Below are positions 934 to 38,792 of a stretch of 42,385 nucleotides of DNA, one piece after another; the first letter of the stretch is position 1, and the number at the start of each line of letters is the position of its first letter. The position numbers were made by a program, and so were the translations under genes. Source of the DNA: an uncultured Gammaproteobacteria bacterium (GTDB lineage Bacteria; Patescibacteriota; Patescibacteriia; UBA2196). Location of the stretch: the NCBI GenBank assembly GCA_964488715.1, contig CAZAVD010000002.1:7093-49477 (forward strand), given 5' to 3'. The notes beneath the pieces were generated by a model. It was not told the origin of the DNA. It saw only the letters and a list, made by a program, of their open reading frames with translations, and did not search any database.

Positions 934-1039
934 AAAGTTCAAAATCCAAAATCCAAAAAAATATTAAAATTAAAATATTAAATATTTAAAATTTAGTATT
1001 TGATATTTTTTTGAACTTTGAGCTTTGGATTTTGAGCTT
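934..1039. repeat. Imperfect inverted repeat built of 7-nt units (CAAAATC/CAAAGTT) spanning the rsmA stop codon
   Basis: 934-963 AAAGTTCAAAATCCAAAATCCAAAAAAATAT vs reverse complement of 1003-1039; both arms end CAAAAAAATAT; right arm encodes the rsmA C-terminal tail. Confidence 0.45.
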
Positions 1040-1918
1040 ATAAATTAACTTTATCCAATCCTCTATTGATAATTCCTGTGCTCTAACTTTTCTATCTAAC
1101 CCTGCTTGAATTAAAATCTTTTCAGCTTCTAAAGCTGGAATTTTCAACCCTGCTGATAAATTATTTTTCAGCATTTTACGTTTAGCTGAAAAGCCTATCT
1201 TAACTATCTTAAAAAAAGTTTTATAATTTATATTATCATAATTATTTTTTATTTTTAATTTAATAACAGCACTATCAACATCAGGCTCTGGCCAAAAATT
1301 ACTTCTTGATACTTGCGCTACAATTTCACATTCTGCGTAAAATTGGCATAAAACAGATAAAATAGACATTTTGCCAGGCTTGTCCCGTCGCTCGCGAGCG
1401 ACGGGACTGGCAACTATTCTCTCTGCAACTTCTTTTTGAACCATTAAAACCATTAATTCTGGTTTATTTTTTTCTTCATGCAAAAACTTCCACAAAACTG
1501 GACTTGTAATCTGATATGGCAAGTTTGATATTATTTTGTAATCTTGAGTTTGGAATTTGAAATTTGGATTTTTTTTGGAAATTGTATCTTGGAAATTGAA
1601 AATTTTAAGTATATCATCATTGATTATTTCTATTTTTTTATTTTTATATTTTGTTAATTGAATTTTGAGTCTTGAATAAAGTTTCTTATCTTTTTCTACA
1701 ACAACTAAATTATCTGTATATTTTAATAATTCTTGAGTTAAAACTCCAAACCCTGGTCCAATTTCTAATATATTATCTTTCTCTGATAACTCCCCTGCTT
1801 TAACAATTTTATTTAATATATTTTTATTAATTAAAAAATTCTGACCTAGTTTTTTGCTAGGCCTAATATCTAATTTTTTACAAAGATTTTTGATTATATT
1901 GATATTAGTTAACTGCAT
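986..1918 (-). CDS. rsmA: 16S rRNA (adenine1518/1519-N6)-dimethyltransferase RsmA/KsgA
   Basis: GQNFL, SAM motif EIGPGFGVLT, NLPYQITSP. ORF-track N-terminus (1919-1960) overlaps the tRNA-like gene, so start placed at ATG 1918 (MQLTNINIIKNL). Confidence 0.9.
   Translation of the reverse strand: MQLTNINIIKNLCKKLDIRPSKKLGQNFLINKNILNKIVKAGELSEKDNILEIGPGFGVLTQELLKYTDNLVVVEKDKKLYSRLKIQLTKYKNKKIEIINDDILKIFNFQDTISKKNPNFKFQTQDYKIISNLPYQITSPVLWKFLHEEKNKPELMVLMVQKEVAERIVASPVARERRDKPGKMSILSVLCQFYAECEIVAQVSRSNFWPEPDVDSAVIKLKIKNNYDNINYKTFFKIVKIGFSAKRKMLKNNLSAGLKIPALEAEKILIQAGLDRKVRAQELSIEDWIKLIYKLKIQSSKFKKISNTKF
1382..1407. repeat. Perfect 26-bp GC-rich palindrome embedded in frame in rsmA
   Basis: GTCCCGTCGCTCGCGAGCGACGGGAC; translated as part of SPVARERRD. 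Confidence 0.9.
1549..1606. repeat. AT-rich heptad-unit element copy inside rsmA
   Basis: TTTGGAATTTGAAATTTGGATTTTTTTTGGAAATTGTATCTTGGAAATTGAAAATTTT; near-full match to reverse complement of intergenic 8772-8822. Confidence 0.8.
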
Positions 1919-1927
1919 AAAATAAAA

Positions 1928-2002
1928 TGGTGGACTTGACGGGAATCGAACCCGCGCCACTGCGTGTCAACGGCAATAATGCTACCATTACACCACAAGC
2001 CC
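1928..2002 (-). tRNA. tRNA-like gene, 75 nt with encoded CCA; isotype unresolved (anticodon arm non-canonical by hand folding)
   Basis: Acceptor GGGCTTG/CAAGTCC with G3:U70, A73, CCA; D arm TGGTGTAATGGTAGCA; T arm GCGGG-TTCGATT-CCCGT. Confidence 0.5.
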
Positions 2003-2849: not shown

Positions 2850-4049
2850 TTATCTATTTGCCAGATAAAATTCTTCTTTAGAAATTAGATTTATAAAAAC
2901 AGAAACCACTGCGCCTAATATAAAAATCCAAACAATATTAATATTTAATGCTAATAAAATTAAAGCTAAAATTACCATAATAATTCTACCCCAGGTTAAA
3001 GCTGTTTCGCGCATAATAGTAAATTCATCAACATAATGTCCTTCATCAGCTGCAATTTCATACATTAAAGCATCAAATGGCGTACGCATTAATATGCCAG
3101 TAAAGTTATGATAAATCCCAACAAGAAAAATATGCAAACCTGATTCAATAATAGCCTTAAAAATCCAACCCAAACTATACAAAATGCTACCAGTACGCAT
3201 TAACTTTTTCTTATCAAACTTATCTGTTGCTTCACCAACAATATATCTAATCACGCATGAGACCAAAACAACTGCTGCAGAAATTAAACCTACTTGCATA
3301 TATTTTCCATCTAATAAGATAAAAATAAAAATTGGCCAGATTAAACAACCAATATAGTTTTGAAAACCATCAGCCATATATGCTAAATTAGTTTTAATAT
3401 GCTGACCATCAAAAAACTGTTTAAAAGTCTCAAAATATCCAAAACTATATTTTTCCCTTGTATGTGGAACAAAAAATAATGGGAAAATAGAAATAAATAA
3501 AACAACACTAGCTAATATATATAAAACAGAAAAACCAAATTTAGAAATAATAAAAGCAGAAAAAATTGGCAATAAAATTCCAATTAATGAAACAATAATA
3601 GCTAAAAAACTTATCTGTCGACCGCGATGATGTTTGTTGATAAATCGCGCAAAATCAACATGATATGGAATCCAGAAAAAAACTCTAAAAGTTGTTCCAA
3701 AAAAGATTAAACTTACAATTAATGGCCAGATTATTTCATTAGCTTGAGCTAGAAAATAAAAAATTAAAAAATAAACAATCAACAATAAATTGCCGATTAT
3801 CATAAAAAAATGCAAACTTTTGTATTTCATTATTTTAGCCCACAAAGGCATTGCTAAAATATAAAATAAATTTAAAGCACCATAAAAAATTAAAGCAAAT
3901 TTTAAACTCCCGCTTAAAGTATAAACAAAAATTGGACCAAACATTCCAATTATACTTACCCCTATATCACGGATAATTTTACCCATATATAGACTTCGCA
4001 AACCTAATGATAATTTTTCCATTTTTTGAATTTTAGAAAATATATTCAT
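2850..4049 (-). CDS. Polytopic membrane transporter, MFS-like (tentative)
   Basis: 399 aa, hydrophobic helices throughout; 1-nt gap to tsaC, 4-nt overlap with upstream HD gene. Confidence 0.6.
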   Translation of the reverse strand: MNIFSKIQKMEKLSLGLRSLYMGKIIRDIGVSIIGMFGPIFVYTLSGSLKFALIFYGALNLFYILAMPLWAKIMKYKSLHFFMIIGNLLLIVYFLIFYFLAQANEIIWPLIVSLIFFGTTFRVFFWIPYHVDFARFINKHHRGRQISFLAIIVSLIGILLPIFSAFIISKFGFSVLYILASVVLFISIFPLFFVPHTREKYSFGYFETFKQFFDGQHIKTNLAYMADGFQNYIGCLIWPIFIFILLDGKYMQVGLISAAVVLVSCVIRYIVGEATDKFDKKKLMRTGSILYSLGWIFKAIIESGLHIFLVGIYHNFTGILMRTPFDALMYEIAADEGHYVDEFTIMRETALTWGRIIMVILALILLALNINIVWIFILGAVVSVFINLISKEEFYLANR

Positions 4050-4636
4050 ATTTTAGAAGAAATCTCTAAATTTAAAAATTTATTTTTGTTTTTTGTTACA
4101 GCATTTAAAAATAATGGAACTAAAATTTTACTCACAAGCCTCCAATATAAAGATTTTTTTGCTAAATTCTTTGCATTATCTATTCTTCTAGAACTTATTC
4201 CATCTAAAAAATCAGCATCTTGAATTATTTTATTATACAAATTTCTCTTTCCATTTCTGTATCTAAAACTCATTAAAACATCATGATATAAAACTATATT
4301 TATAATAATTTTTAATTCACTTTTTTCTATTTCAACTTGTTTAAAATATTTTTTAATAAATTTAACACTTCTGCGTGCTTCTAAAAAATATTGAAATGGA
4401 CTTGCTTTATAAAAAGCATAGCTAATATCATGCCATGCGCAAGCTAGCCTTAAAATATTATTATTTATATTACTTGTCCCACTATAAACGGGATTATTTT
4501 CTAGTAATAATTTTTTAATTTTAAAAGCATTTTCTTCTACTCTTTGAATATGCGACCAATCATGATTCAAATCTTTAGTCTGTTGCATTAATTCTTTTGC
4601 TTTATTATATAAAAAATCAAATTGTTCTTGTGTCAT
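4046..4636 (-). CDS. HD-domain phosphohydrolase family protein
   Basis: DWSHIQRVE and CAWHDISY (H...HD signature). Confidence 0.7.
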   Translation of the reverse strand: MTQEQFDFLYNKAKELMQQTKDLNHDWSHIQRVEENAFKIKKLLLENNPVYSGTSNINNNILRLACAWHDISYAFYKASPFQYFLEARRSVKFIKKYFKQVEIEKSELKIIINIVLYHDVLMSFRYRNGKRNLYNKIIQDADFLDGISSRRIDNAKNLAKKSLYWRLVSKILVPLFLNAVTKNKNKFLNLEISSKI

Positions 4637-4809: not shown

Positions 4810-7269
4810 CTAAACAACAATACTAATTAATTTATTTTTAATAAAAATAATTTTTTTAGGTGTTTTATTATCTAGCCATTTTTGAATTTTTTCAGAATCT
4901 AAAACTACTTTTTTAGCTTCATCTTCAGAAATATTTGCATTTACTAAAATTTTATCTCTAACTTTTCCATTCACTTGAACTACTAACTCTATTTCATCAG
5001 CTTGAATCAAGCTTTCATCATATTCTGGCCACTTTTCTTTGGCAAGTGCTTGATCATTGCCAAGCAAGTGCCATAATTCCTCTGAAATGTGTGGGGCAAA
5101 TGGAGATAATAATAAAATTAAATTTTTATAAATTTCTTTAGAAATATTTTCTTGTTTTTCTAGATTATTTACTAAAATCATCATTTGTGAAATTGCTGTG
5201 TTAAATTTCATTTCTTCAATATCTTCAGTAACTTTTTTAATCGTCTGGTGCATCAAGATATCAAGTTTTGATTTTTGACTTGCAATTTTAACTTTTAAAT
5301 TTTGACTTTTAACTTTTTTTTGTAAATTCCAAACTTTATCCAAAAATCTTTTTACCCCAATTATTCCCTTGTCGCTCCAGGATCCACCATCTTCAAACGG
5401 AGCTAAAAATAAAACATAAGTTCTAAAAACATCTGCTCCATATTTTTTAATATAATCATCCGGAGTGATTGAACTTCCTTTTGATTTTGACATTTTTGTT
5501 CCATCTTCAGCTAAAATCATTCCTTGATGAGTTAATTTTATAAATGGCTCATCAAAATTTATTAATTTTTGATCATGTAAAACTTTTGTGATAAATCTTG
5601 CATACAATAAATGCATAACAGCATGTTCTGCTCCCCCACAATATTGATCAACTGGTAACCACTTATCTACTAAATTTTTATCAAATGCTTTGTCATTTAA
5701 ATCTGGATTTATAAATCTTAAAAAATACCAAGATGAGCACACAAAAGTATCCATTGTTTCTGTACTGCGTTTGGCATCTATTCCACATTTAGGACATTTA
5801 GTATTAACAAAATTTTTAGATCTAGCAAGCGGCGATTCACCCTCATCAGTTGGTTTAAAATCTTCTAATTCAGGCAATTGTACTGGCAAATTTTCATCTA
5901 AAACTTCACCGCATTTTTCACAATAAATAATTGGAATTGGCGCGCCCCAATATCTTTGTCTAGAAATTAGCCAATCGCGCAGCTTATAATTAACAGCTTT
6001 TTTGCCTAATTTATTCTCTTCAAGCCAATCACTAATCTTATTAATTGCATCTTTGGGCTTTGAATTATCTAAAAAATCAGAATTAACCATTTTTCCTGAA
6101 TCTATTTCTGTAAAAGCCTCTTTATCAACATCACCACCTTTAATAACTTCAATAATTTCTAAGTTATATTTCTTAGCAAATTCCCAATCTCTTTCATCAT
6201 GAGCTGGTACAGCCATAATTGCGCCTGTTCCATAATTCATCATCACATAATCTGCAACAAAAATTGGAATTGGTTTGTTATTTACGGGATTAATTGCCTG
6301 AACACCTTTTAATTCAACTCCGGTTTTATTTTTATTTAAATCTCCTCTTTCTAAATCAGATTTTTTACTAGCTTTTTGGATATATTTTTTTACTTCTTGG
6401 AAATTGGAAATTGTATCTTGGAACTTGCTGATAAGCTGATGTTCTGGCGCAATAACCATAAAAGTTGCGCCAAACAAAGTATCAGGTCGTGTAGTAAATA
6501 CTTCAAGTTTAAGGGATCCCTCCGCTCCACTCACTCGTTCCTCACTCGTTCCTGTCGGGATGACAGAAAAAAAGACATTTGCTCCCACAGACTTGCCAAT
6601 CCAATTCTTCTGCATTGTAATTGTTTTTTTAGGCCAATTAATTTTATTATGATCTTGTAATAACTTATCAGCATAATCTGTAATTTTAAAAAACCATTGT
6701 TTTAAATTTTTCTGAACTACTTCTGAATCACATCTTTCACATTTTCCAGAAACAACCTGTTCATTTGCCAATACAGTTTTACAAGAAGGGCACCAATTAA
6801 CTGGGGCTTCTGCTTGATAAGCTAAACCAGCTTTGTATAAAACAGAAAAAATCCATTGTGTCCATTTATAATATTCTGGAGAAGATGTATCAATTTCCTT
6901 TTCCCAATCATACATTAAACCTAATTCCCTAAGTTGCTGTTTTGAATATTCAATATTTTTACTTGTACTTTCAGCTGGATGAACACCTGTCTTAATTGCA
7001 TAATTTTCTGCTGGCAAACCAAACGCATCTGCTCCCATTGGCTGAAAAACATTAAAACCTTGCATTTTTTTGTATCTGCCAAACACATCTGAACCAGTAA
7101 AATTATACCCATGCCCAATATGAATTTTATCGCCAGAAGGATAATAAAACATAACTAAATTATAAAATTTAGTTTTTAATTCATTGTCTAAATCGCAAAA
7201 ATTAGTCTTATTGTCTTCCCAATACTTTTGCCATTTTTTTTCAATTATTTTGTGATTATATTCTTGCAT
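4810..7269 (-). CDS. leuS: Leucine--tRNA ligase
   Basis: YPSGDKIHIGHGYNF (HIGH), VFTTRPDTLFG, KMSKSKGS (KMSKS), 819 aa. Confidence 0.95.
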   Translation of the reverse strand: MQEYNHKIIEKKWQKYWEDNKTNFCDLDNELKTKFYNLVMFYYPSGDKIHIGHGYNFTGSDVFGRYKKMQGFNVFQPMGADAFGLPAENYAIKTGVHPAESTSKNIEYSKQQLRELGLMYDWEKEIDTSSPEYYKWTQWIFSVLYKAGLAYQAEAPVNWCPSCKTVLANEQVVSGKCERCDSEVVQKNLKQWFFKITDYADKLLQDHNKINWPKKTITMQKNWIGKSVGANVFFSVIPTGTSEERVSGAEGSLKLEVFTTRPDTLFGATFMVIAPEHQLISKFQDTISNFQEVKKYIQKASKKSDLERGDLNKNKTGVELKGVQAINPVNNKPIPIFVADYVMMNYGTGAIMAVPAHDERDWEFAKKYNLEIIEVIKGGDVDKEAFTEIDSGKMVNSDFLDNSKPKDAINKISDWLEENKLGKKAVNYKLRDWLISRQRYWGAPIPIIYCEKCGEVLDENLPVQLPELEDFKPTDEGESPLARSKNFVNTKCPKCGIDAKRSTETMDTFVCSSWYFLRFINPDLNDKAFDKNLVDKWLPVDQYCGGAEHAVMHLLYARFITKVLHDQKLINFDEPFIKLTHQGMILAEDGTKMSKSKGSSITPDDYIKKYGADVFRTYVLFLAPFEDGGSWSDKGIIGVKRFLDKVWNLQKKVKSQNLKVKIASQKSKLDILMHQTIKKVTEDIEEMKFNTAISQMMILVNNLEKQENISKEIYKNLILLLSPFAPHISEELWHLLGNDQALAKEKWPEYDESLIQADEIELVVQVNGKVRDKILVNANISEDEAKKVVLDSEKIQKWLDNKTPKKIIFIKNKLISIVV
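6396..6427. repeat. AT-rich heptad-unit element copy inside leuS
   Basis: CTTGGAAATTGGAAATTGTATCTTGGAACTTG; 18-nt core GGAAATTGTATCTTGGAA at 6406-6423, translated FQDTIS. Confidence 0.85.
6514..6564 (-). repeat. Long-form GTCATCC...GGGATCC element in frame in leuS
   Basis: Minus strand GTCATCCCGACAGGAACGAGTGAGGAACGAGTGAGTGGAGCGGAGGGATCC (51 nt, 17 codons); tandem 11-mer GGAACGAGTGA x2; encodes VIPTGTSEERVSGAEGS. Confidence 0.85.
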
Positions 7270-7381: not shown

Positions 7382-8713
7382 TTGCTCTCTTCTCTGCTAC
7401 GCAGTGGGGTTTTTTTATTTAAAAAAATTAGCCAATTATTTGTGTGGCTAATACACCCAATTAACAAAATATTTTACTTTGTTTTTAAAAAAATAATCCT
7501 GCCAATATATAATTTAGTTTATTTTTTTAAGAAGAAACTTCAATCTGAAAAAGAAAATAGTTTAGATAATAAAATCATTTTACTTTTAGCTAATAAATAT
7601 TTAATTTACACATTGGCTGTTATTTTGTCAGCTGGAATTTTAATTAATAATTTCACAATTTCAGGCGCAGCTGCTGAAGATTTAGGTAAAAAAAGTTTAT
7701 TATACAAAATAGCACAAGGCAGTGAGTTTGAAGAAATTATTGAAGAAAGAAGCGCGATTATTGAAGAAAATATTGATAAAAAATCAAAACCAACAACTTC
7801 TTCTGAAACATCCAAAACCATTAGTTTAAATATTGAAAAAACAACTTTAACTCGCAGTGAAAAACCACGGGAAATTGATACATCAAATTTACAAGAAACA
7901 ACTGTGGCTGAAGGTTTGGCGGCTGAAACAATTTCCAAAACTGGATCCATTACTACTCTGTCAGTACCAAAACCTAAATCTGAAATTACAGAATATATTG
8001 TAGAATCTGGTGATACAATTTCAAACATTGCTAAAAAATTCCAAATTTCAATTAATACAATTTTATGGGCAAACGATTTAAGCGGGTTAAGTATTATTCG
8101 TCCAAATGACAAACTAACTATTCCACCAACCAGCGGTGTAATTCATAAAGTTAAAAAAGGTGATACTATTTCCGCTATTGCTAAGAAATATAACATTGAA
8201 CAAAATGCTATTTTAAATTTTAATCAGTTGGTTAATAATGATCAATTATCAATTGGCCAAGTTTTAATTGTGCCAGGTGGTGAAATTAAACAAATTTACC
8301 GTAGAACAACAAGTGGTTTTGCATCAGTCTTTAAACCATCTTCATCACAAAAAAAAGCTCACGGTTTTATTTGGCCAACTGTGTCACGTCGTATTACTCA
8401 ATATTATCATTGGCGTCATCATGCCCTTGATATTGGTGGTAAAACTGGTTCACCACTTTATGCTTCAATGTCTGGAAAAATTACAAAAGCTGGCTGGGGA
8501 CGCGGTTATGGTTATCATGTTGTTATTGATCATGGTGGTGGCAAAAAAACTCTTTACGCTCATATGTCAAAAATTTATGTTCAACGCGGAGATCAAGTTA
8601 CACAAGGATCCGTTATTGGCGCTTTAGGTTCAACTGGATGGTCAACTGGCCCGCATTTACATTTTGAAATTACAATTAATGGAACCAAAGTAAATCCATT
8701 GAGTTATCTTTAA
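7382..8713 (+). CDS. Secreted LysM-LysM-M23 peptidoglycan endopeptidase
   Basis: Two LysM repeats (YIVESGDTISNIAKKF..., HKVKKGDTISAIAKKY...), M23 motifs HHALDIGG and GPHLHFEI; TTG start from track, exact start uncertain. Confidence 0.85.
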   Translation: MLSSLLRSGVFLFKKISQLFVWLIHPINKIFYFVFKKIILPIYNLVYFFKKKLQSEKENSLDNKIILLLANKYLIYTLAVILSAGILINNFTISGAAAEDLGKKSLLYKIAQGSEFEEIIEERSAIIEENIDKKSKPTTSSETSKTISLNIEKTTLTRSEKPREIDTSNLQETTVAEGLAAETISKTGSITTLSVPKPKSEITEYIVESGDTISNIAKKFQISINTILWANDLSGLSIIRPNDKLTIPPTSGVIHKVKKGDTISAIAKKYNIEQNAILNFNQLVNNDQLSIGQVLIVPGGEIKQIYRRTTSGFASVFKPSSSQKKAHGFIWPTVSRRITQYYHWRHHALDIGGKTGSPLYASMSGKITKAGWGRGYGYHVVIDHGGGKKTLYAHMSKIYVQRGDQVTQGSVIGALGSTGWSTGPHLHFEITINGTKVNPLSYL

Positions 8714-8715
8714 AT

Positions 8716-8762
8716 GGTAGTCATCCTGAGCGACCTTTAGGATCGTTAGGAGCCCAAGGATC
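8716..8762 (+). repeat. Long-form GTCATCC...AAGGATC element
   Basis: GGTAGTCATCCTGAGCGACCTTTAGGATCGTTAGGAGCCCAAGGATC; near-identical to 24527-24572; begins 2 nt after the M23 stop. Confidence 0.9.
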
Positions 8763-8771
8763 TTATTGTAA

Positions 8772-8822
8772 AATTTCCAATTTCCAAGATACGATTTCCA
8801 AATAAATTTCAAATTCCAAAAT
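8772..8822 (-). repeat. AT-rich heptad-unit element, intergenic copy
   Basis: Reverse complement ATTTTGGAATTTGAAATTTATTTGGAAATCGTATCTTGGAAATTGGAAATT aligns with rsmA 1549-1606. Confidence 0.85.
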
Positions 8823-8826
8823 AAAA

Positions 8827-8861
8827 AATCCGCAGTGAAAATCTACTGCGGATTTTGTTTT
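8827..8861 (+). terminator. Rho-independent terminator, possibly bidirectional
   Basis: AATCCGCAGT-GAAAATCT-ACTGCGGATT then TTTGTTTT; A-run upstream. Confidence 0.75.
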
Positions 8862-9112: not shown

Positions 9113-9150
9113 TGTCGCCAGATAGGAACGATCGTTCCTATCTGGCGACA
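9113..9150. repeat. Perfect 38-bp palindrome, downstream flank of Cas2-like gene
   Basis: TGTCGCCAGATAGGAACGATCGTTCCTATCTGGCGACA. Confidence 0.95.
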
Positions 9151-9174: not shown

Positions 9175-9729
9175 TTATATAACTTTCTTAGCAATAATAA
9201 ACTTTACAAATTGACTTAAATCACATTTATGAACTAAATGTCTGATTAATTTAAAAGATTGTTCTCTATTGGTTTGAAAAACACTATTTTGAAGATAATC
9301 AAAACCTAAACCATAAAGCGATTTTCTAAAAAGGTTTCTTGCTCTTTTTAATCTTTCTGGTACATCAAAAATAACTATATAAATTTCATTACTTTTTTTC
9401 TTTTTAGAACGCTTCATTTCCAGAGGATAAGAAATTAATTTTAACCAACCTTTTTTAGTTAACATTAATCTTTTTTTCTTGTCTTCTATTATAAGATCAC
9501 TTTTTTTTAATTTAGTAATCATTTGACTAATTCTTCTTTTTTCTTTTATTTCTTCTCTTTTTTCTTCATTTTTCACTTGTCTACTTTTATAAAGGTCAAA
9601 CAAATTAGGTCTATAAATATATTCTCTAAAATCAATCAATCCGCCAACTGCTCCGCCTATTATTTGTAAAACTTCTTTGGTTAACGAAGGTTTAAAAAGC
9701 TCTTTTTTATTATTATTTTTTGTTTTCAT
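9175..9729 (-). CDS. wHTH + Cas2-like (PaaX-family-like) protein, paralogue A
   Basis: IYIVIFDVPERLKRARNLFRKSLYGLGFDYLQNSVF resembles the Cas2 / PaaX middle-domain signature; LIIEDKKKRLMLTKKGW is wHTH-like; paralogue at 24714-25232. Confidence 0.6.
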   Translation of the reverse strand: MKTKNNNKKELFKPSLTKEVLQIIGGAVGGLIDFREYIYRPNLFDLYKSRQVKNEEKREEIKEKRRISQMITKLKKSDLIIEDKKKRLMLTKKGWLKLISYPLEMKRSKKKKSNEIYIVIFDVPERLKRARNLFRKSLYGLGFDYLQNSVFQTNREQSFKLIRHLVHKCDLSQFVKFIIAKKVI

Positions 9730-9741
9730 AAACTTTTTTAG

Positions 9742-9779
9742 TGTAGCGTAATAGGAACGATCGTTCCTATTACGCTACA
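9742..9779. repeat. Perfect 38-bp palindrome, upstream flank of Cas2-like gene
   Basis: TGTAGCGTAATAGGAACGATCGTTCCTATTACGCTACA; shares the 20-bp core with 9113-9150. Confidence 0.95.
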
Positions 9780-9821
9780 ATATTTTAATTAAAATATTAA
9801 TAATGTCTAATAAAACTAATT

Positions 9822-17493: not shown

Positions 17494-18165
17494 ATGAATA
17501 TAAACTGGTTTGGACAATCATTTTTCAAAATCACAACAAAAAACTCATCTGGAGAAGATGTTGTTATTGCTATTGACCCATTTGATAAATCTTATGGTTT
17601 AAAAGTGCCAACAAAATTTGGCGCAGATATTGTTTTAATTTCTCATGATCATAAAGATCATAGTAATATAAATGCAGTTAAAGGCACTAATTTATCACCA
17701 GAACCTTTTGTTATTTCCGGTCCAGGAGAATATGAAATTAAAGGAGTAATGATTTATGGAATTCCAGCTTTTCATGATGACAAACAAGGCGAAGATCGTG
17801 GAGAAATAACAATGTTTTTAATTGAAACAGAAGGAGTTTGGTTAGCGCATTTAAGCGATTTAGGACAAAAATCTTTAGAAAATGGTCAGTTAGAACAATT
17901 ACAATCAGTTGATGTTTTAATGATTCCAGTTGGCGGAACATTTACTATTGATGCCAAAGAAGCTTCAAAAATAATTTCGCAAGTTGAACCAAGAGTTATT
18001 ATCCCAATGCACTATAATCTGCCTGGACTTAAATTAGATCTTGATAGTGTAGATAAATTTATTAAAGAAGAAGGAATAAATCCAGAAGAAGTTGAAGGTA
18101 AATTAAAAATTACTAAAAAAGACTTGCCAAATGAAGATACTAAACTTTTTATTTTAAAAAGTTAA
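17494..18165 (+). CDS. MBL-fold metal-dependent hydrolase, UPF0173-like
   Basis: WFGQSFFKI, IAIDPFD, LISHDHKDH (HxHxDH). Confidence 0.8.
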   Translation: MNINWFGQSFFKITTKNSSGEDVVIAIDPFDKSYGLKVPTKFGADIVLISHDHKDHSNINAVKGTNLSPEPFVISGPGEYEIKGVMIYGIPAFHDDKQGEDRGEITMFLIETEGVWLAHLSDLGQKSLENGQLEQLQSVDVLMIPVGGTFTIDAKEASKIISQVEPRVIIPMHYNLPGLKLDLDSVDKFIKEEGINPEEVEGKLKITKKDLPNEDTKLFILKS

Positions 18166-18170
18166 TTCCT

Positions 18171-18277
18171 AAATTACAAATTACAATTTCTAATAAATTT
18201 CTAAATTAATAATTTTTTAAATTGGGCATTAGACATTCTTAATTTCATTGGAAATTAGAAATTATAATTTAGAAATT
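18171..18277. repeat. AT-rich heptad-unit inverted-repeat (MITE-like) element, copy 2
   Basis: Left arm AAATTACAAATTACAATTTCTAAT (23/24 to 105-128); right arm ATTAGAAATTATAATTTAGAAATT; inner TTAGACATT and ATTGGAAATTAGAAATT shared with copy 1. Confidence 0.65.
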
Positions 18278-18578
18278 GAATAATATTATGTTCAATAAAT
18301 CTAAACAAAACATACAAATATACATTATATTCGCCTTAATTATCCTAGTGATCCTGGGCTTTTGGTATTATAGTTTAAAAATAAATTTAAAAAATGGTTT
18401 AAACACAGAAAATAATCGCTCTGGTTTTACTTTATCAGAATTAAAACAAGAAATTTCTGACATTCTTTCAAAATCTCCGTTAACAAATAAACAAGAAATA
18501 AAAAAAGATAATATAAATAAAGACGAGCAATTAGATAAACTGGCTGATGAGTTAGTTGATAAATTAAAAAATAAATAA
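18276..18578 (+). CDS. Small single-TM protein
   Basis: IYIIFALIILVILGFWYY helix; TTG at 18276 lies inside the repeat element, so ATG at 18288 is the more likely start. Confidence 0.5.
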   Translation: MNNIMFNKSKQNIQIYIIFALIILVILGFWYYSLKINLKNGLNTENNRSGFTLSELKQEISDILSKSPLTNKQEIKKDNINKDEQLDKLADELVDKLKNK

Positions 18579-18637: not shown

Positions 18638-18874
18638 ATGCGTCAAGTTTTAAGCGTTTCTCTTCCAGAAAAAACAATTCAAACAGTTAAAGAAAAAACC
18701 AAAACTAGAGGATTTGGAAATGTTAGTAATTATATTAAGCATCTTATCAAACTGGATGAAGAAGATGATTGGATTTCAGAAGAAGAACTATTAAAAATAG
18801 TAGAAGAAAGCCGTAAAGAATATAAAAAAGGCAAAACAATCAAAGCCAATTCAATGGCTGACCTTTTAGTATGA
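18638..18874 (+). CDS. Type II antitoxin, ribbon-helix-helix type
   Basis: 78 aa, N-terminal RHH-like VLSVSLPEKTIQTVKEK...SNYIKHLI; 4-nt ATGA overlap with the toxin gene. Confidence 0.7.
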   Translation: MRQVLSVSLPEKTIQTVKEKTKTRGFGNVSNYIKHLIKLDEEDDWISEEELLKIVEESRKEYKKGKTIKANSMADLLV

Positions 18875-19143
18875 TAATAAAAAACATTGAATACTCAAAA
18901 CGTTTTTTCAAAGATTTAAATAAATTACCTGAACAAATTGTAAAAATAGCACTTAGAAAAGAACAACTATTTAAATATAATCCATTACATCCATCCCTAA
19001 GATTACACTCATTAAAAGGCAATTTAAAAGGAACATGGTCACTATCTGTAACTGATAATTATCGAATAATTTTTGACAGATCGCCAAATGGTGATATTAT
19101 TTTTTTAACAATTGGAAAACATGATATTTATAAATATTTATAA
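18871..19143 (+). CDS. Type II toxin, RelE/ParE superfamily
   Basis: 90 aa, [40 protein letters not shown] matches the RelE/ParE C-terminal pattern. Confidence 0.75.
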
Positions 19144-23852: not shown

Positions 23853-24518
23853 TTAAAATAAAAAATCTTTCATCCTCTCATACAAATCTTTAGTTGCAAC
23901 AACATCTCTCATACAATATTCAGCTATTTTTTTATATTCTTTATTTTTAAATAAATTATTTACTTCAAGTCCTGAAACACCTTCATCTTTTGGATTTTTT
24001 ATTCCAAATGTTTGGCACAAACTTTCCAAAGAAAGTTTTCTAAATGCTCCATAAAAACTTAATTGATCCATTATATCTAAATGTTCTTTTGTTGAATAGC
24101 GATAAGGCATTAAATTTTTTGTTGGTTTTAAATTATGATAAATTGAGCGGATAATAATAAAAGGGCAATCAAAGCCTCTTCCATTAAAAGAAATTATTTG
24201 TTCAAAAAATCTAATATCTTGCCAAAAACTTTCTAAAATTCCTTTTTCATCTTTAACAATATATTCTATATTATTTTTTGTATAATTTTCTATATTATTT
24301 TTTGGTGCTTGAAAATATACTTTGCCTTGCCCTGAATCTGAATTTAACATTGCAATAGCAACTACTTCTCCGCTAATTGGCAATAAACCAGTGCGTGATA
24401 AAATATCCTCACGCTCTTTTTCATCTTTAGCGTTTTTAATTAAATATTCTTTTATTATTGGATCAAGTTCATCTTTTTCTTGACCACAAGTTTCAATATC
24501 AAATATTAATTTAGGCAT
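23853..24518 (-). CDS. RNase H-fold 3'-5' exonuclease related to the PolB exonuclease domain
   Basis: LIFDIETCG (ExoI DxE), SFNGRGFDCPFI (ExoII), YCMRDVVATKDLY (ExoIII). Confidence 0.75.
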   Translation of the reverse strand: MPKLIFDIETCGQEKDELDPIIKEYLIKNAKDEKEREDILSRTGLLPISGEVVAIAMLNSDSGQGKVYFQAPKNNIENYTKNNIEYIVKDEKGILESFWQDIRFFEQIISFNGRGFDCPFIIIRSIYHNLKPTKNLMPYRYSTKEHLDIMDQLSFYGAFRKLSLESLCQTFGIKNPKDEGVSGLEVNNLFKNKEYKKIAEYCMRDVVATKDLYERMKDFLF

Positions 24519-24526
24519 ATTTTTAA

Positions 24527-24572
24527 GGTAGTCATCCTGAGCGACCTTTAGGATTTTAGGAGCCGAAGGATC
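24527..24572 (+). repeat. Long-form GTCATCC...AAGGATC element
   Basis: GGTAGTCATCCTGAGCGACCTTTAGGATTTTAGGAGCCGAAGGATC; lies 8 nt upstream of the exonuclease ATG on the opposite strand. Confidence 0.9.
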
Positions 24573-24604
24573 TGGTTGAATATTGCTTAGCTTAATTTAA
24601 TTTA

Positions 24605-24633
24605 ATCTTATCTAATTTATCTAATCTTGACAA
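24605..24633 (-). promoter_or_regulatory. Candidate promoter TTGTCA-17-TAAGAT for the exonuclease operon
   Basis: Read on minus strand, about 30 nt downstream of repeat 24662-24696. Confidence 0.4.
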
Positions 24634-24661: not shown

Positions 24662-24696
24662 ATAGACTCTTAACTCACGGCCGTGAGTTAATGACA
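24662..24696. repeat. 35-nt repeat with perfect 20-bp palindromic core, downstream flank of Cas2-like paralogue B
   Basis: ATAGACTCTTAACTCACGGCCGTGAGTTAATGACA; core TAACTCACGGCCGTGAGTTA. Confidence 0.9.
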
Positions 24697-24713
24697 AGTA
24701 ATTTATTAGTAAT

Positions 24714-25232
24714 TTATATTAGGCCAAACCTTTCCTTTAGTTTATCCTCACTACTGATTTTATCAGCCTCAATATACTGAAACCAATCACCTTCTCTAAA
24801 TCCTGGTATAATATCATACAAATAATTTAATACATCATAAGGGAATACCCAAACACTTTTTTGTAATTGATAGAATCCTATATCTATTAAGCTTTTTCTT
24901 AAATTATCTCTAAATTTTCTTTTTGTTTCTGGTATATCAAATATTAGGATGCGCCATTTTTTGTCCCATTTAGCTTTATCAATTTTATTTTTAATAATTA
25001 TTTTTGAAACTTCTTGCTTGCCTTTTTTAGTTAAATCACATCTTTTTTTACTTTTATTGTATTTAATATATTTACCTCTTTCCAAGTTACGATAAGCATA
25101 ATAAGGTATACCGCCAATTGATTGTTTAATATAACCATAAGGATTAATTAAATAAAAAATCAACCCTTCATTTTCATCAATAAAATTTTTTAAAAATTCT
25201 ATTGTTTTTTGACCTAATTTTCTTGTTTTCAT
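24714..25232 (-). CDS. wHTH + Cas2-like (PaaX-family-like) protein, paralogue B
   Basis: WDKKWRILIFDIPETKRKFRDNLRKSLIDIGFYQLQKSVWVFP matches the PaaX-type signature; LERGKYIKYNKSKKRCDLTKKGK is wHTH-like. Confidence 0.65.
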   Translation of the reverse strand: MKTRKLGQKTIEFLKNFIDENEGLIFYLINPYGYIKQSIGGIPYYAYRNLERGKYIKYNKSKKRCDLTKKGKQEVSKIIIKNKIDKAKWDKKWRILIFDIPETKRKFRDNLRKSLIDIGFYQLQKSVWVFPYDVLNYLYDIIPGFREGDWFQYIEADKISSEDKLKERFGLI

Positions 25233-25234
25233 AT

Positions 25235-25269
25235 ATAGACTTTTATCTCACGATCGTGAGTTAATGATA
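25235..25269. repeat. 35-nt repeat with palindromic core, upstream flank of paralogue B
   Basis: ATAGACTTTTATCTCACGATCGTGAGTTAATGATA; 30/35 identical to 24662-24696 in direct orientation; overlapped by a TTGCTT-17-TATCAT promoter on the minus strand. Confidence 0.9.
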
Positions 25270-25314
25270 GCAAATTAAATTTAAAAAAGCAAAAAAATAT
25301 GATAATAAAAAAAT

Positions 25315-25345
25315 TTGACAAAACTTTACTGGGGGGGGGTAGAAT
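25315..25345 (+). promoter_or_regulatory. Promoter TTGACA-N19-TAGAAT with a G9 homopolymer in the spacer
   Basis: TTGACA 25315-25320, G9 25331-25339, TAGAAT 25340-25345; about 88 nt upstream of ATG 25433. Confidence 0.55.
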
Positions 25346-33885: not shown

Positions 33886-34103
33886 AGTTTATGCGCGTAA
33901 AAAAAACCATCCCTCCGTTCAACTTATCCACAGGAAGGTTCTTGACTTTTACGTTTTTAGCTATCTAGTTGTAGCTGCCTTCATAAATTGCTAATTTTAG
34001 CGGAAAATTCCGCTTGCCTGAGGCAGAAAAATATATAATAATTTAAACTTTTTACACAATTATATTTAAAATAACATGGTTTGAATTTTGTGTCAAATTT
34101 TTC

Positions 34104-34136
34104 TGTTGGCTCCTGGCTGTGCCTGGAGCCATTTTG
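34104..34136 (+). repeat. GGCTCCAGG-family hairpin, inverted relative to the other copies, with T-run on the plus strand
   Basis: TGTTGGCTCCTGG-CTGTG-CCTGGAGCC then ATTTTGTT; reverse complement aligns with 38743-38769. Confidence 0.7.
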
Positions 34137-34171
34137 TTATTCCATTAAAAATTTATTTTAGAAGAATTATT

Positions 34172-34720: not shown

Positions 34721-34759
34721 AAAGTTATATTTTACTTATTATTTATTTTAAAACTCCAT

Positions 34760-34791
34760 CCAACGTTAGAGTAACGTTACCCTAACGTTGG
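34760..34791. promoter_or_regulatory. 32-bp near-perfect palindrome with three AACGTT hexamers at 11-bp spacing
   Basis: CCAACGTTAGAGTAACGTTACCCTAACGTTGG; 40-70 nt upstream of the HD gene ATG (34720). Confidence 0.6.
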
Positions 34792-34857
34792 GTAACTATA
34801 TATTAAAATTTTCTTTATCATCTCTATAATCTCTACTTATTATACAATTTGCTTCCA

Positions 34858-34887
34858 CCTGTCATCCCTGCGAAGGCAGGGATCCAG
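34858..34887 (+). repeat. Short-form hairpin repeat CCTGTCATCC-stem-loop-GGATCCAG
   Basis: CCTGTCATCCCTGCGAAGGCAGGGATCCAG. Confidence 0.9.
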
Positions 34888-34976
34888 TTAATGGATTTAA
34901 ATACCCCAATAATACATCAACTTTCCAAAGATTATCACAGAAACCAGGTTTAATTAATTTTAATAAAGTATAAATA

Positions 34977-35006
34977 CTGGATTCCCGCTTTCGCGGGAAT
35001 GACAGG
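34977..35006 (-). repeat. Short-form hairpin repeat
   Basis: Minus strand CCTGTCATTCCCGCGAAAGCGGGAATCCAG. Confidence 0.9.
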
Positions 35007-35011
35007 AAGAG

Positions 35012-35041
35012 CTGGACTCCTGCCTACGCAGGAGTGACAGG
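35012..35041 (-). repeat. Short-form hairpin repeat, 4 nt after the GIY-YIG stop
   Basis: Minus strand CCTGTCACTCCTGCGTAGGCAGGAGTCCAG. Confidence 0.9.
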
Positions 35042-35045
35042 AAAA

Positions 35046-35345
35046 TCAAAACAATTCATCATACAAATCATCCCAATCAGGATTTTCTTCTTCAATTAAT
35101 TTAATCTTCCATTGTCTTTTCCATTTTTTCATTTGTTTTTCTCTTGTTATTGCATCATTTACATAATAATATGTTTCATAATAAACTAATTTATCTACAT
35201 TATATTCTTTAGTAAATCCTTCAATTTCTTTACTTTTATGTTCTTCCACTCTACATGTCAAATCTGAAGTCATTCCAATGTATAAAGTGCCATTTCTTTT
35301 ACTAGCTAGGATATAGACAAAATAGTATTTATCAAATTTTGCCAT
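35046..35345 (-). CDS. Small stand-alone GIY-YIG nuclease, YhbQ/UPF0213-like
   Basis: YFVYILASKRNGTLYIGMTSDLTCRVEEHK, FTKEYNVDKLVYYE, REKQMKKWKRQWKIKLIEEENPDWDDL. Confidence 0.85.
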   Translation of the reverse strand: MAKFDKYYFVYILASKRNGTLYIGMTSDLTCRVEEHKSKEIEGFTKEYNVDKLVYYETYYYVNDAITREKQMKKWKRQWKIKLIEEENPDWDDLYDELF

Positions 35346-35380
35346 ATATGTGGTGGTTTTAATTATTATTTATTTTAAAT

Positions 35381-35408
35381 GGATCCCTGCCTACGCAGGG
35401 ATGACAGG
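35381..35408 (-). repeat. Short-form hairpin repeat, 35 nt upstream of the GIY-YIG ATG
   Basis: Minus strand CCTGTCATCCCTGCGTAGGCAGGGATCC. Confidence 0.9.
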
Positions 35409-35485
35409 TGGTATAAATTTATTATTTTATAAAGTATTAAATGAATATTATCGCTGAAGTCAGAGACTGGAGCCAACATACACGT

Positions 35486-38649
<3,164 letters not shown>

Positions 38650-38730: not shown

Positions 38731-38765
38731 ATAAAACAAAAAGGCTCCAGGTGCAACCTGGAGCC
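38731..38765 (-). terminator. Rho-independent terminator (GGCTCCAGG-family hairpin)
   Basis: GGCTCCAGG-TGCAA-CCTGGAGCC perfect 9-bp stem; on minus strand followed by TTTTTGTTTT. Confidence 0.8.
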
Positions 38766-38792
38766 AACACAAAATAAGGGGTGACAAGAACT

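Follow-up and report, generated by a model that had tools for sequence, protein, structure and literature searches.

Two gene cassettes with flanking palindromes

The stretch of DNA analysed here, 42,385 nt of contig CAZAVD010000002.1 from an uncultured member of the Patescibacteriota (assembly GCA_964488715.1) and hereafter called the window, contains a small regulator-like gene that is enclosed between two copies of a dyad-symmetric repeat. The gene (24714..25232, minus strand) encodes a protein of 172 residues which, on the basis of its open reading frame (ORF), Pfam matches and AlphaFold2 (AF2) model, combines a winged helix with a Cas2-like domain of the PaaX_M type; together with its two sites it is termed cassette 2. 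Due to the orientation of the gene, the copy at 25235..25269 (ATAGACTTTTATCTCACGATCGTGAGTTAATGATA; core CTCACGATCGTGAG, dyad between 25253 and 25254) is the upstream one and probably represents an operator, and the copy at 24662..24696 (ATAGACTCTTAACTCACGGCCGTGAGTTAATGACA; core CTCACGGCCGTGAG at 24674-24687, dyad between 24680 and 24681) is the downstream one and is regarded as a probable auxiliary operator. The repeats are 35 nt long, directly oriented and identical at 30/35 positions. Both sequence reading and a repeat search of the window (family D15) thereby bear out the first-pass annotation of this DNA, which had described them and their palindromic cores around the 172-residue gene. The downstream copy contains a perfect 20-mer palindrome (TAACTCACGGCCGTGAGTTA, 24671-24690), the upstream copy a perfect 14-mer (CTCACGATCGTGAG, 25247-25260). 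The pattern CTCACGRYCGTGAG, with at most two mismatches, occurs in the 42 kb only at the two flanks of cassette 2, compared to 0.05 expected occurrences, and two matches were obtained in 0/100 shuffled sequences.

Although the repeat comprises 35 nt, cassette 2 is palindromic over just 14-22 bp. The non-palindromic flanks are likewise conserved between the copies and are not self-complementary, which fits a read-out of double-stranded DNA and not a hairpin. As RNA, the upstream copy forms a weak hairpin (-6 kcal/mol, z -0.5). In an orthologous locus (L085), whose protein is 94% identical and whose neighbouring genes are the same, the downstream copy is identical and the upstream copy is kept except for one central T>C change that generates a GACC centre. 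The central difference between the two window copies, GGCC versus GATC, had been interpreted before as a mirrored change; the otherwise identical GACC copy of the orthologue indicates that it is not compensatory. It is drift at an unconstrained centre, which has no fixed polarity across the family. A more distant orthologue of 76% identity has different arms and different downstream neighbours.

A paralogous gene of 184 codons (9175..9729, minus strand; cassette 1) is surrounded by two perfect 38-nt palindromes, TGTAGCGTAATAGGAACGATCGTTCCTATTACGCTACA upstream (9742..9779; repeat family I17) and TGTCGCCAGATAGGAACGATCGTTCCTATCTGGCGACA downstream (9113..9150; also recovered by repeat search). The paralogy proposed in the first-pass annotation is confirmed by comparing the proteins, which share 42% identity over 67 residues (BLASTP, E 9e-10) and both match PaaX_M. 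The copies of cassette 1 differ at four mirrored pairs of outer-arm positions, and both remain perfect palindromes; as RNA they would fold with -27 and -34 kcal/mol (z -9 and -11). For the site pattern of each cassette, 0.00-0.05 chance occurrences are expected in the window. The palindromes of the two cassettes are not unrelated, as had been assumed, since both hold the core ACGATCGT with its C/G at positions ±3 from the centre, a feature of 99% of the half-sites in the family described below. The geometry of the two cassettes had been considered as copied, and the arithmetic is right: 11-14 nt (cassette 2) and 12 nt (cassette 1) separate the core from the ATG, and 23 and 24 nt the stop codon from the palindrome. 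These offsets, however, refer to the edges of palindromes that differ in length (20 versus 38 nt). Referred to the dyads they amount to about 21/33 in cassette 2 and 31/43 in cassette 1, thus deviating by 10 bp on each side, and they do not constitute a family rule. Near both cassettes a repeat of about 65 nt is found (GGTAGTCATCCTGAGCGACCTTTAGGAT...AGGAGCC.AAGGATCT; 8698-8765 and 24509-24575, family D20) with 85% identity over the aligned 46 nt. One copy borders directly on the exonuclease start codon, the other is located immediately after an M23 peptidase gene, and the folding of the repeat is no better than that of shuffled sequence.

Flanking sites across the protein family

A word-indexed search retrieved 116 relatives of the protein, nearly all of 170-215 residues, all with PaaX_M and all from sources of the Patescibacteria, also called Candidate Phyla Radiation (CPR); their database names range from "PaaX" to "CRISPR-associated endonuclease Cas2". 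The family is large: a profile search of 1.84 billion cluster representatives gave 1,230 clusters (50% identity) at E ≤ 1e-30 and 4,863 at E ≤ 1e-10, and a scan of species-representative genomes gave at least 579 loci, all in metagenome-assembled genomes of the Patescibacteria type. From these, 80 loci were kept for flank analysis, for which 160 nt per side entered the per-locus listing and 120 nt per side the scoring against control genes. Flank pairs with a score of ≥14 were present for 58/76 family genes versus 4/299 other genes of the same loci (Mann-Whitney p 1e-31). Flanking palindromes, which the first-pass annotation had suggested to look for in related genomes, are thus the rule among these homologues. 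Under a strict definition of a palindrome (≥14/20 complementary pairs plus C/G at ±3), sites were found on both flanks in 40/77 loci, on one flank in 26 and on neither in 11.

The similarity between the two copies of a locus fades at about ±20 nt from the dyad and is at random level beyond (52 loci), which characterizes the sites as discrete elements and not as remnants of a duplication. The dyad precedes the ATG by a median of 35 nt (interquartile range 18-48) and follows the stop codon by a median of 46 nt (interquartile range 23-57). Paralogues of one genome carry different arms, as exemplified by the loci L003 and L004 and by the two cassettes of the window. Bracketing throughout the family and arm divergence between paralogues support, as far as sequence comparison can tell, the earlier notion of a modular unit of one gene and two sites with protein-specific recognition; its designation as a duplicating unit is plausible in view of the many divergent paralogues. 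The gene and its two sites appear to be a self-contained accessory module whose diversification in CPR bacteria has produced a great many protein-site pairs with differing arms. The bracketing points to a large, previously undescribed set of matched protein-site pairs, and a full-text literature search found no description of the family or of the self-bracketing arrangement.

Protein architecture

The cassette 2 protein matches PaaX_M (PF20803) with 77 bits (E 1.2e-21, residues 87-163) and the cassette 1 protein with 38.8 bits (E 1e-9), compared to a cut-off of 24. Its AF2 model (predicted local distance difference test score 85, predicted template modelling score 0.76) consists of a winged helix, a long helix and a ferredoxin-like domain. 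The winged helix is built up of helices 8-17, 33-36 and 44-52 and a beta wing (56-67); profile matches of this N-terminal part include the winged helix-turn-helix proteins F-93, TubR and AspA as well as the wing of PaaX, and the Pfam model of the PaaX N-terminal domain gave no match. In a Foldseek search the top match was E. coli PaaX (8A39), aligned over 178 columns; Cas2 structures, Rv0674, TubR and VapD came next. No match to PaaX_C was detected at E ≤ 0.1; the chain ends about ten residues past the Cas2-like domain and the AF2 model contains no further domain. With 29.4 bits, the protein is far below the cut-off of the PaaX equivalog model TIGR02277 (264.55).

The Cas2 model TIGR01573 is matched by the proteins of cassettes 2 and 1 with 27.2 and 26.0 bits (cut-off 24.5), where only model positions 2-39 of 96 are covered, and the Cas2 models of PADLOC at 9e-7 and 7e-7. 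The sequence models hence recognize the beta1-alpha1-beta2 motif of Cas2 at threshold, which explains the "Cas2" names in databases as threshold artefacts. Asp99 corresponds to Cas2 model position 8, the position of the catalytic aspartate. Family members show no or almost no variation in this aspartate and in an LQxSVW motif, and the aspartate is replaced in E. coli PaaX. A link to CRISPR was considered and discarded, as Pfam scans of 28 ORFs and a tandem repeat scan revealed neither cas1 or other cas genes nor a CRISPR array in the window. The Pfam scans of the window ORFs also gave no paa genes, and no transposase domain was found in the cassette 2 protein. PADLOC reported nothing beyond the Cas2 motif, and PHROG had no match for the cassette 2 protein.

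Site architecture and covariation with the protein

Alignment of 110 sites on their dyads revealed an element of about 38-40 bp composed of three layers. Around the centre, position 3 is C in 99% of the half-sites and position 4 is a purine; the central pair is R/Y (the slash marks the dyad) and varies among GATC, GGTC, GACC and GGCC, with CTATAG or CATATG in other sub-groups. Positions 5-9 are poorly paired, being unpaired in about half of the sites, and differ between copies. Positions 10-18 are strongly paired, common to both copies of one locus and different between loci. For sites with an asymmetric centre (GGTC or GACC) the polarity is alike in 8 loci and opposite in 9. Direct and inverted orientations of the two copies both exist where sites are asymmetric. 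As the polarity of the centre is random relative to the gene, directional recombination is unlikely. On the sense strand, mismatches comprise 64 G.T, 49 A.C and 162 others and thus have no wobble bias.

Within positions 10-18, 24 compensated pairs were counted versus about 2.6 expected. Mirrored differences that preserve the palindrome are found in cassette 1 and in the loci L006, L039 and L040. In L003, whose family gene is located between ligA and a tRNA gene, the flanking sites are perfect palindromes of 48 and 40 nt (3909-3956 and 4517-4556) with a common 12-nt core, TCACGATCGTGA, and unrelated arms. These mirrored changes and the L003 sites suggest either selection for self-complementarity or a frequent "correction" of palindromes by template switching.

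In a set of 56 proteins (1,540 pairs), similarity of the arms at positions 10-18 depends on the identity of the N-terminal part (coefficient 0.59, 0/2,000 permutations) and not on that of the C-terminal part. For the cores the dependence is reversed: their similarity follows the identity of the C-terminal part (coefficient 0.34, p 0.018), with no dependence on the N-terminal part. Arm similarity thus tracks that of the winged-helix region (permutation p < 0.0005), a covariation for which the first-pass annotation had proposed a test. The pattern fits an arrangement in which the winged helices would read the arms and a Cas2-like dimer would be placed over the centre.

The upstream copy and the promoter

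In 18 loci the dyad is only 17-19 nt away from the ATG, the palindrome ends with ...GTGTATG or ...GTACATG, no Shine-Dalgarno sequence is present and the proteins start with MGxLE. Their column consensus at -12..-7 from the A of the ATG is TAtaAT. An upstream copy that ends in the start codon and contains a -10-like hexamer suggests a leaderless promoter embedded in the site. The gene-proximal arm of the upstream copy contains a hexamer with ≥5/6 identity to TATAAT in 11/18 loci, compared to 4/18, 3/13 and 5/13 in the three remaining arms. The reduced symmetry of positions 5-9 may be attributed to this hexamer, which is housed there in many upstream copies.

In cassette 2 a putative promoter, TTGCTT-17-TATCAT (25264..25292, minus strand), was read directly from the letters. 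Its TATCAT (25264-25269) forms the outer edge of the upstream repeat and its TTGCTT (25287-25292 in plus-strand coordinates) matches TTGACA at 3/6 positions, which explains its absence from the list of the promoter scan. In the downstream copy, the equivalent of the -10 hexamer is TGTCAT, which lacks the A at position 2. The second promoter of the first-pass annotation, TTGTCA-17-TAAGAT, is present at 24633..24605 on the minus strand, and a promoter-like TAGACA-16-TAAAAT (9809..9782, minus strand) ends 3 nt before the upstream site of cassette 1. Both motifs proposed earlier around cassette 2 thus exist, but scanning cannot distinguish them from chance: 9 promoter-like matches were obtained around cassette 2 versus 7.8 expected from shuffles of this AT-rich DNA, and the matches around cassette 1 are likewise not above shuffles. 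The promoter assignments within the window are accordingly treated as putative throughout.

The downstream copy and the genomic neighbourhood

No terminator-like site was found on either strand between 24400 and 25500, and the downstream copy is followed by a T-run in 3/51 family loci; on these grounds a function as intrinsic terminator was rejected. A general function as leaderless promoter of the next gene was also rejected, since ORF starts are not enriched at the expected distance and the -10-like hexamer is largely restricted to the gene-proximal arm of the upstream copy. The gene downstream of the family gene is co-directional in 36 and convergent in 38 of 74 loci, so that the presence of the downstream copy is independent of how this neighbour is oriented. 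A conserved partner gene was not detected: among about 440 neighbouring proteins, the largest cluster has 5 members. The small ORFs that follow cassette 1 and the cassette of contig L081 are unrelated, the latter resembling AbrB-type proteins by eye.

Additional cognate copies are rare, at most one or two per 8-kb locus. In L032 a third copy is placed 52 nt before a 148-residue ORF, and L079 has the order site-regulator-site-thyA-folA-site. In L041 (243-2590) a cognate site comes after each of three tandem paralogous membrane-protein genes (131-133 residues, two of them identical), and genes and sites together form a periodic array of about 596 bp that ends in the regulator gene. From these three loci we infer that the sites mark the boundaries of transcription units controlled by the module.

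The neighbours of cassette 2 are genes for an exonuclease, a DUF4258 protein and a 324-residue protein without assignment, as well as rpoC and gyrA. A run of nine G (about 25331-25339) lies between cassette 2 and the divergent ORF of the 324-residue protein, and a similar run precedes the site in L075. A relative without cassette (L087) possesses the same backbone with rpoC (84%), exonuclease (79%), DUF4258 and gyrA genes; cassette, adjacent 324-residue gene and solo site are absent there, and the place of cassette 2 is taken by ORFs resembling, by eye, an AbrB-type antitoxin, a RelE-type toxin and an HD-domain protein. Cassette 2 is therefore accessory content of a variable islet, and the exonuclease operon is independent of it. 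The earlier assignment of the downstream repeat to the exonuclease operon is correspondingly weak, given a relative that maintains the exonuclease at 79% with neither cassette nor solo site. In several groups of related genomes the cassette occupies the same syntenic position. No family member was found on viral contigs.

Other repeats and genes in the window

Inverted repeats of 46 nt (34846-34891 and 35375-35420, 87% complementary) enclose a 99-residue GIY-YIG nuclease ORF (35046..35345, minus strand; Pfam 1e-14). The repeats contain a hairpin motif of the GTCATCCCTGCGAAGGCAGGGATCC type, and the region (34846-35420) represents another gene-between-repeats arrangement in the window; it also holds a 35-nt tandem repeat at 34977-35043. 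Between an HD-domain gene and the GIY-YIG region, at about 34757-34793, there is a palindrome ATCCAACGTTAGAGTAAC/GTTACCCTAACGTTGGGT. It resembles the motif AACGTTA..GTAACGTTAC..TAACGTT that follows the cassette of L081 (about 1130-1165), an unrelated contig, and may be the site of a different regulator.

Units similar to TTGGAAATTGTATCTTGGAAATTG form a dispersed, mostly intergenic repeat in both orientations (97-157, 928-1039, 1546-1607, 6393-6433, 8769-8830, 18163-18277 and 35889-35930; families D1, D8, D10, I1, I2 and I7). A GC-rich hairpin, GGCTCCAGG...CCTGGAGCC, is present in three copies with similar flanks (2507-2571, 34096-34160 and 38735-38774; D12 and I8) and may be a shared terminator-type element. 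Directly upstream of gyrA, a 90-residue ORF (18871-19143) encodes a toxin of the RelE/YafQ/ParE type, of which the unannotated 100-residue ORF at 18276..18578 could be the partner. A tRNA gene (1931-2002, minus strand) overlaps the 5' end of the called ORF 986..1960 (rRNA adenine dimethylase), so that the true start of the latter is probably further downstream.

Proposed mechanism and alternatives

Based on the structural, positional and covariation data we propose that the 172-residue protein acts as a dimeric autorepressor of a truncated PaaX type, with its operators placed on either side of its own gene, a reading to which we assign a probability of about 0.6. A dimer would recognize the dyad site of about 38-40 bp on each side of the gene. 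Its nearly invariant centre, purine-C-N-N/N-N-G-pyrimidine, tracks the conserved Cas2-like domain and would be contacted by it; the loose spacer at positions 5-9 would often accommodate the -10 element in upstream copies; and specificity would be conferred by the arms at positions 10-18, which differ between loci and vary along with the fast-evolving winged helix. Binding to the upstream copy, situated on or directly after the promoter, would repress the gene and thereby establish negative autoregulation. The downstream copy, which is devoid of promoter elements, would most likely serve as an auxiliary operator, either by forming a loop of about 570 bp with the upstream copy or by blocking transcription at the cassette boundary.

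Several observations weigh against this proposal. The link between protein and site is drawn from co-occurrence and covariation, and the covariation originates mainly from close relatives and is gone among pairs below 50% C-terminal identity; matched evolutionary rates could therefore produce the signal instead of recognition. The sites of L003, with unrelated arms around one 12-nt core, are hard to reconcile with a single protein reading the arms, and the excess of mirrored, palindrome-keeping changes is not predicted by a simple half-site read-out. The promoters assigned in the window do not exceed chance expectation, and the role suggested for the downstream copy has to be compatible with a convergent neighbour in about half of the loci (38/74). 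Moreover, a regulator with itself as the only known target offers no evident benefit, and the invariant Asp99, absent in E. coli PaaX, hints at an activity outside the autorepressor model. A more unconventional scenario, which we consider rather unlikely, is that the Cas2-derived core is more than a dimerization module: it would read the invariant centre of the 38-bp site and perhaps act on it via the aspartate, the winged helices would set the arm specificity, and the two sites would either pair, so that the gene is enclosed in an insulated loop of some 600 bp, or be cut or exchanged at their dyads. If true, this would constitute a new kind of self-bracketing genetic unit and could be a living relative of the DNA-measuring role of Cas2 in spacer capture.

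The palindromes might alternatively act as folded nucleic acid, in the form of RNA stem-loops in untranslated regions or of DNA cruciforms and hairpins, for example as mRNA stabilizers, non-canonical terminators or targets of a Cas2-like RNase; the protein, or the cell, would then respond to the folded structure instead of the duplex sequence. The strong folding of the perfect 38-nt palindromes of cassette 1, the mirrored changes by which diverging copies stay palindromic (cassette 1, L006, L039 and L040; 24 compensated pairs versus about 2.6) and the unrelated yet perfect arms in L003 are all in line with this idea, and some relatives of Cas2 and VapD, both among the Foldseek matches, have been reported as RNases. 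An RNA hairpin is nevertheless disfavoured because the mismatches have no wobble bias, about half of the sites have unpaired positions 5-9, which would break the stem beside the loop, the upstream copy would be untranscribed in the 18 loci of the leaderless type, and the upstream copy of cassette 2 folds weakly and has conserved flanks without self-complementarity. The scarcity of T-runs after the downstream copy (3/51), the random polarity of asymmetric centres, and the RNA family search of the window, which gave tRNA only and no Rfam family for the sites, point in the same direction, and we judge a role as folded nucleic acid to be unlikely. Some of the features that support modularity would also suit a selfish or mobile cassette, in which a Cas2-like nuclease or recombinase-like enzyme acts at the site centres as element ends, or else a tightly self-repressed toxin. 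The units are self-contained and sharply bounded, some so tightly packed that one site ends in the ATG and the next begins a few nucleotides past the stop codon. They have no conserved neighbour family; the 76% orthologue is followed by other genes, and the close relative without cassette has a presumptive toxin-antitoxin pair and HD protein in its place. The aspartate at the catalytic position of Cas2 does not vary within the family and is missing from E. coli PaaX, and asymmetric site copies are oriented directly or inversely. Active transposition is, however, unlikely, since identical or near-identical copies within a genome, target-site duplications and viral carriage were not found and synteny is kept in several groups of related genomes. 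Paralogues are deeply diverged and have different sites, extended flank similarity is missing, the relative without cassette has no solo site, PADLOC offers nothing beyond the Cas2 motif, the random centre polarity speaks against directional recombination, and we know of no recombinase chemistry of Cas2. Altogether a mobile or toxic cassette seems quite improbable. That the repeats are a functionless by-product, either left over from a tandem duplication of local extent or arisen as palindromes by chance in AT-rich intergenic DNA, is suggested by cassette 2 and its relative L004, where similarity extends at 12-14/20 nt past the site on the gene-start side, and by L046 with a duplicated flank of 158 bp. 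The recurrence of the sites in 58/76 loci of very divergent genomes versus 4/299 controls, the chance expectation of 0.00-0.05 per pattern in the window, the random flank similarity beyond ±20 nt in 52 loci and the conservation of the site in the 94% orthologue effectively refute this view.

To our knowledge, almost nothing is known about gene regulation in CPR bacteria, in which very few transcription factors are recognizable. The autorepressor proposal provides a concrete and testable site model for one of the commoner CPR DNA-binding families (about 38 bp long, with invariant C/G at ±3 and arms specific to each locus) and an indication of leaderless promoters embedded in operators in these bacteria. 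The family also represents a natural library: its protein-site pairs are divergent, number hundreds to thousands and might be orthogonal to one another. The database names "Cas2" and "PaaX" are misleading for its members, and a Cas2-like domain with an aspartate at the catalytic position in a probably site-specific DNA-binding protein bears on the relationship between Cas2 and PaaX.

Comparison with known systems

PaaX is the phenylacetyl-CoA-responsive repressor of the paa catabolic genes in E. coli and Pseudomonas (PDB 8A39 and 3L09). PaaX and the window protein have an N-terminal winged helix followed by a Cas2-like central domain in common. In E. coli, the PaaX operator TGATTC-N27-GAATCA has a length of 39 bp, with half-sites at about 14-19 from the dyad, and PaaX also represses its own promoter (PMC9493321). 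In terms of span, this long dyad operator is comparable to the family sites of 38-40 bp with constrained positions 10-18, the site of cassette 2 being palindromic over 14-22 bp. In contrast to PaaX with its 316 residues, the window protein has 172 residues and no C-terminal domain, the helical part by which PaaX binds phenylacetyl-CoA, and hence no known inducer pocket. Identity is 24% over 92 residues, and the window protein keeps the aspartate of the Cas2 "FDI" motif where PaaX has L-S-E. The whole site of the window family is palindromic with a conserved centre, and the family is confined to CPR bacteria with many paralogues. E. coli contains one PaaX box at paaZ/paaA and none flanking paaX, unlike the regulator genes studied here; bracketing was therefore rejected as a canonical PaaX feature.

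With Cas2 the window protein shares the beta1-alpha1-beta2 motif and the aspartate at model position 8, and its C-terminal domain superposes on Cas2 structures; it differs in being fused to a winged helix and in that about 38 residues match the Cas2 sequence models. Cas2 dimers run along duplex DNA in Cas1-Cas2 complexes. A gene flanked by copies of a lineage-specific palindrome of about 35 nt is also known from the REP-associated tyrosine transposases (RAYTs), whose genes are flanked by cognate repetitive extragenic palindromic (REP) sequences. The window protein, however, is not an HUH/Y1 transposase, and its palindromes are not dispersed, with two flanking copies in 42 kb. LacI (O1/O2), GalR (OE/OI) and DeoR use one operator at the promoter and a second one a few hundred base pairs away, inside or beyond the regulated gene. 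In the family described here, by comparison, the pair brackets the regulator's own gene, and the spacing of the two operators in the proposed loop would be set by the length of that gene, about 570-630 bp.

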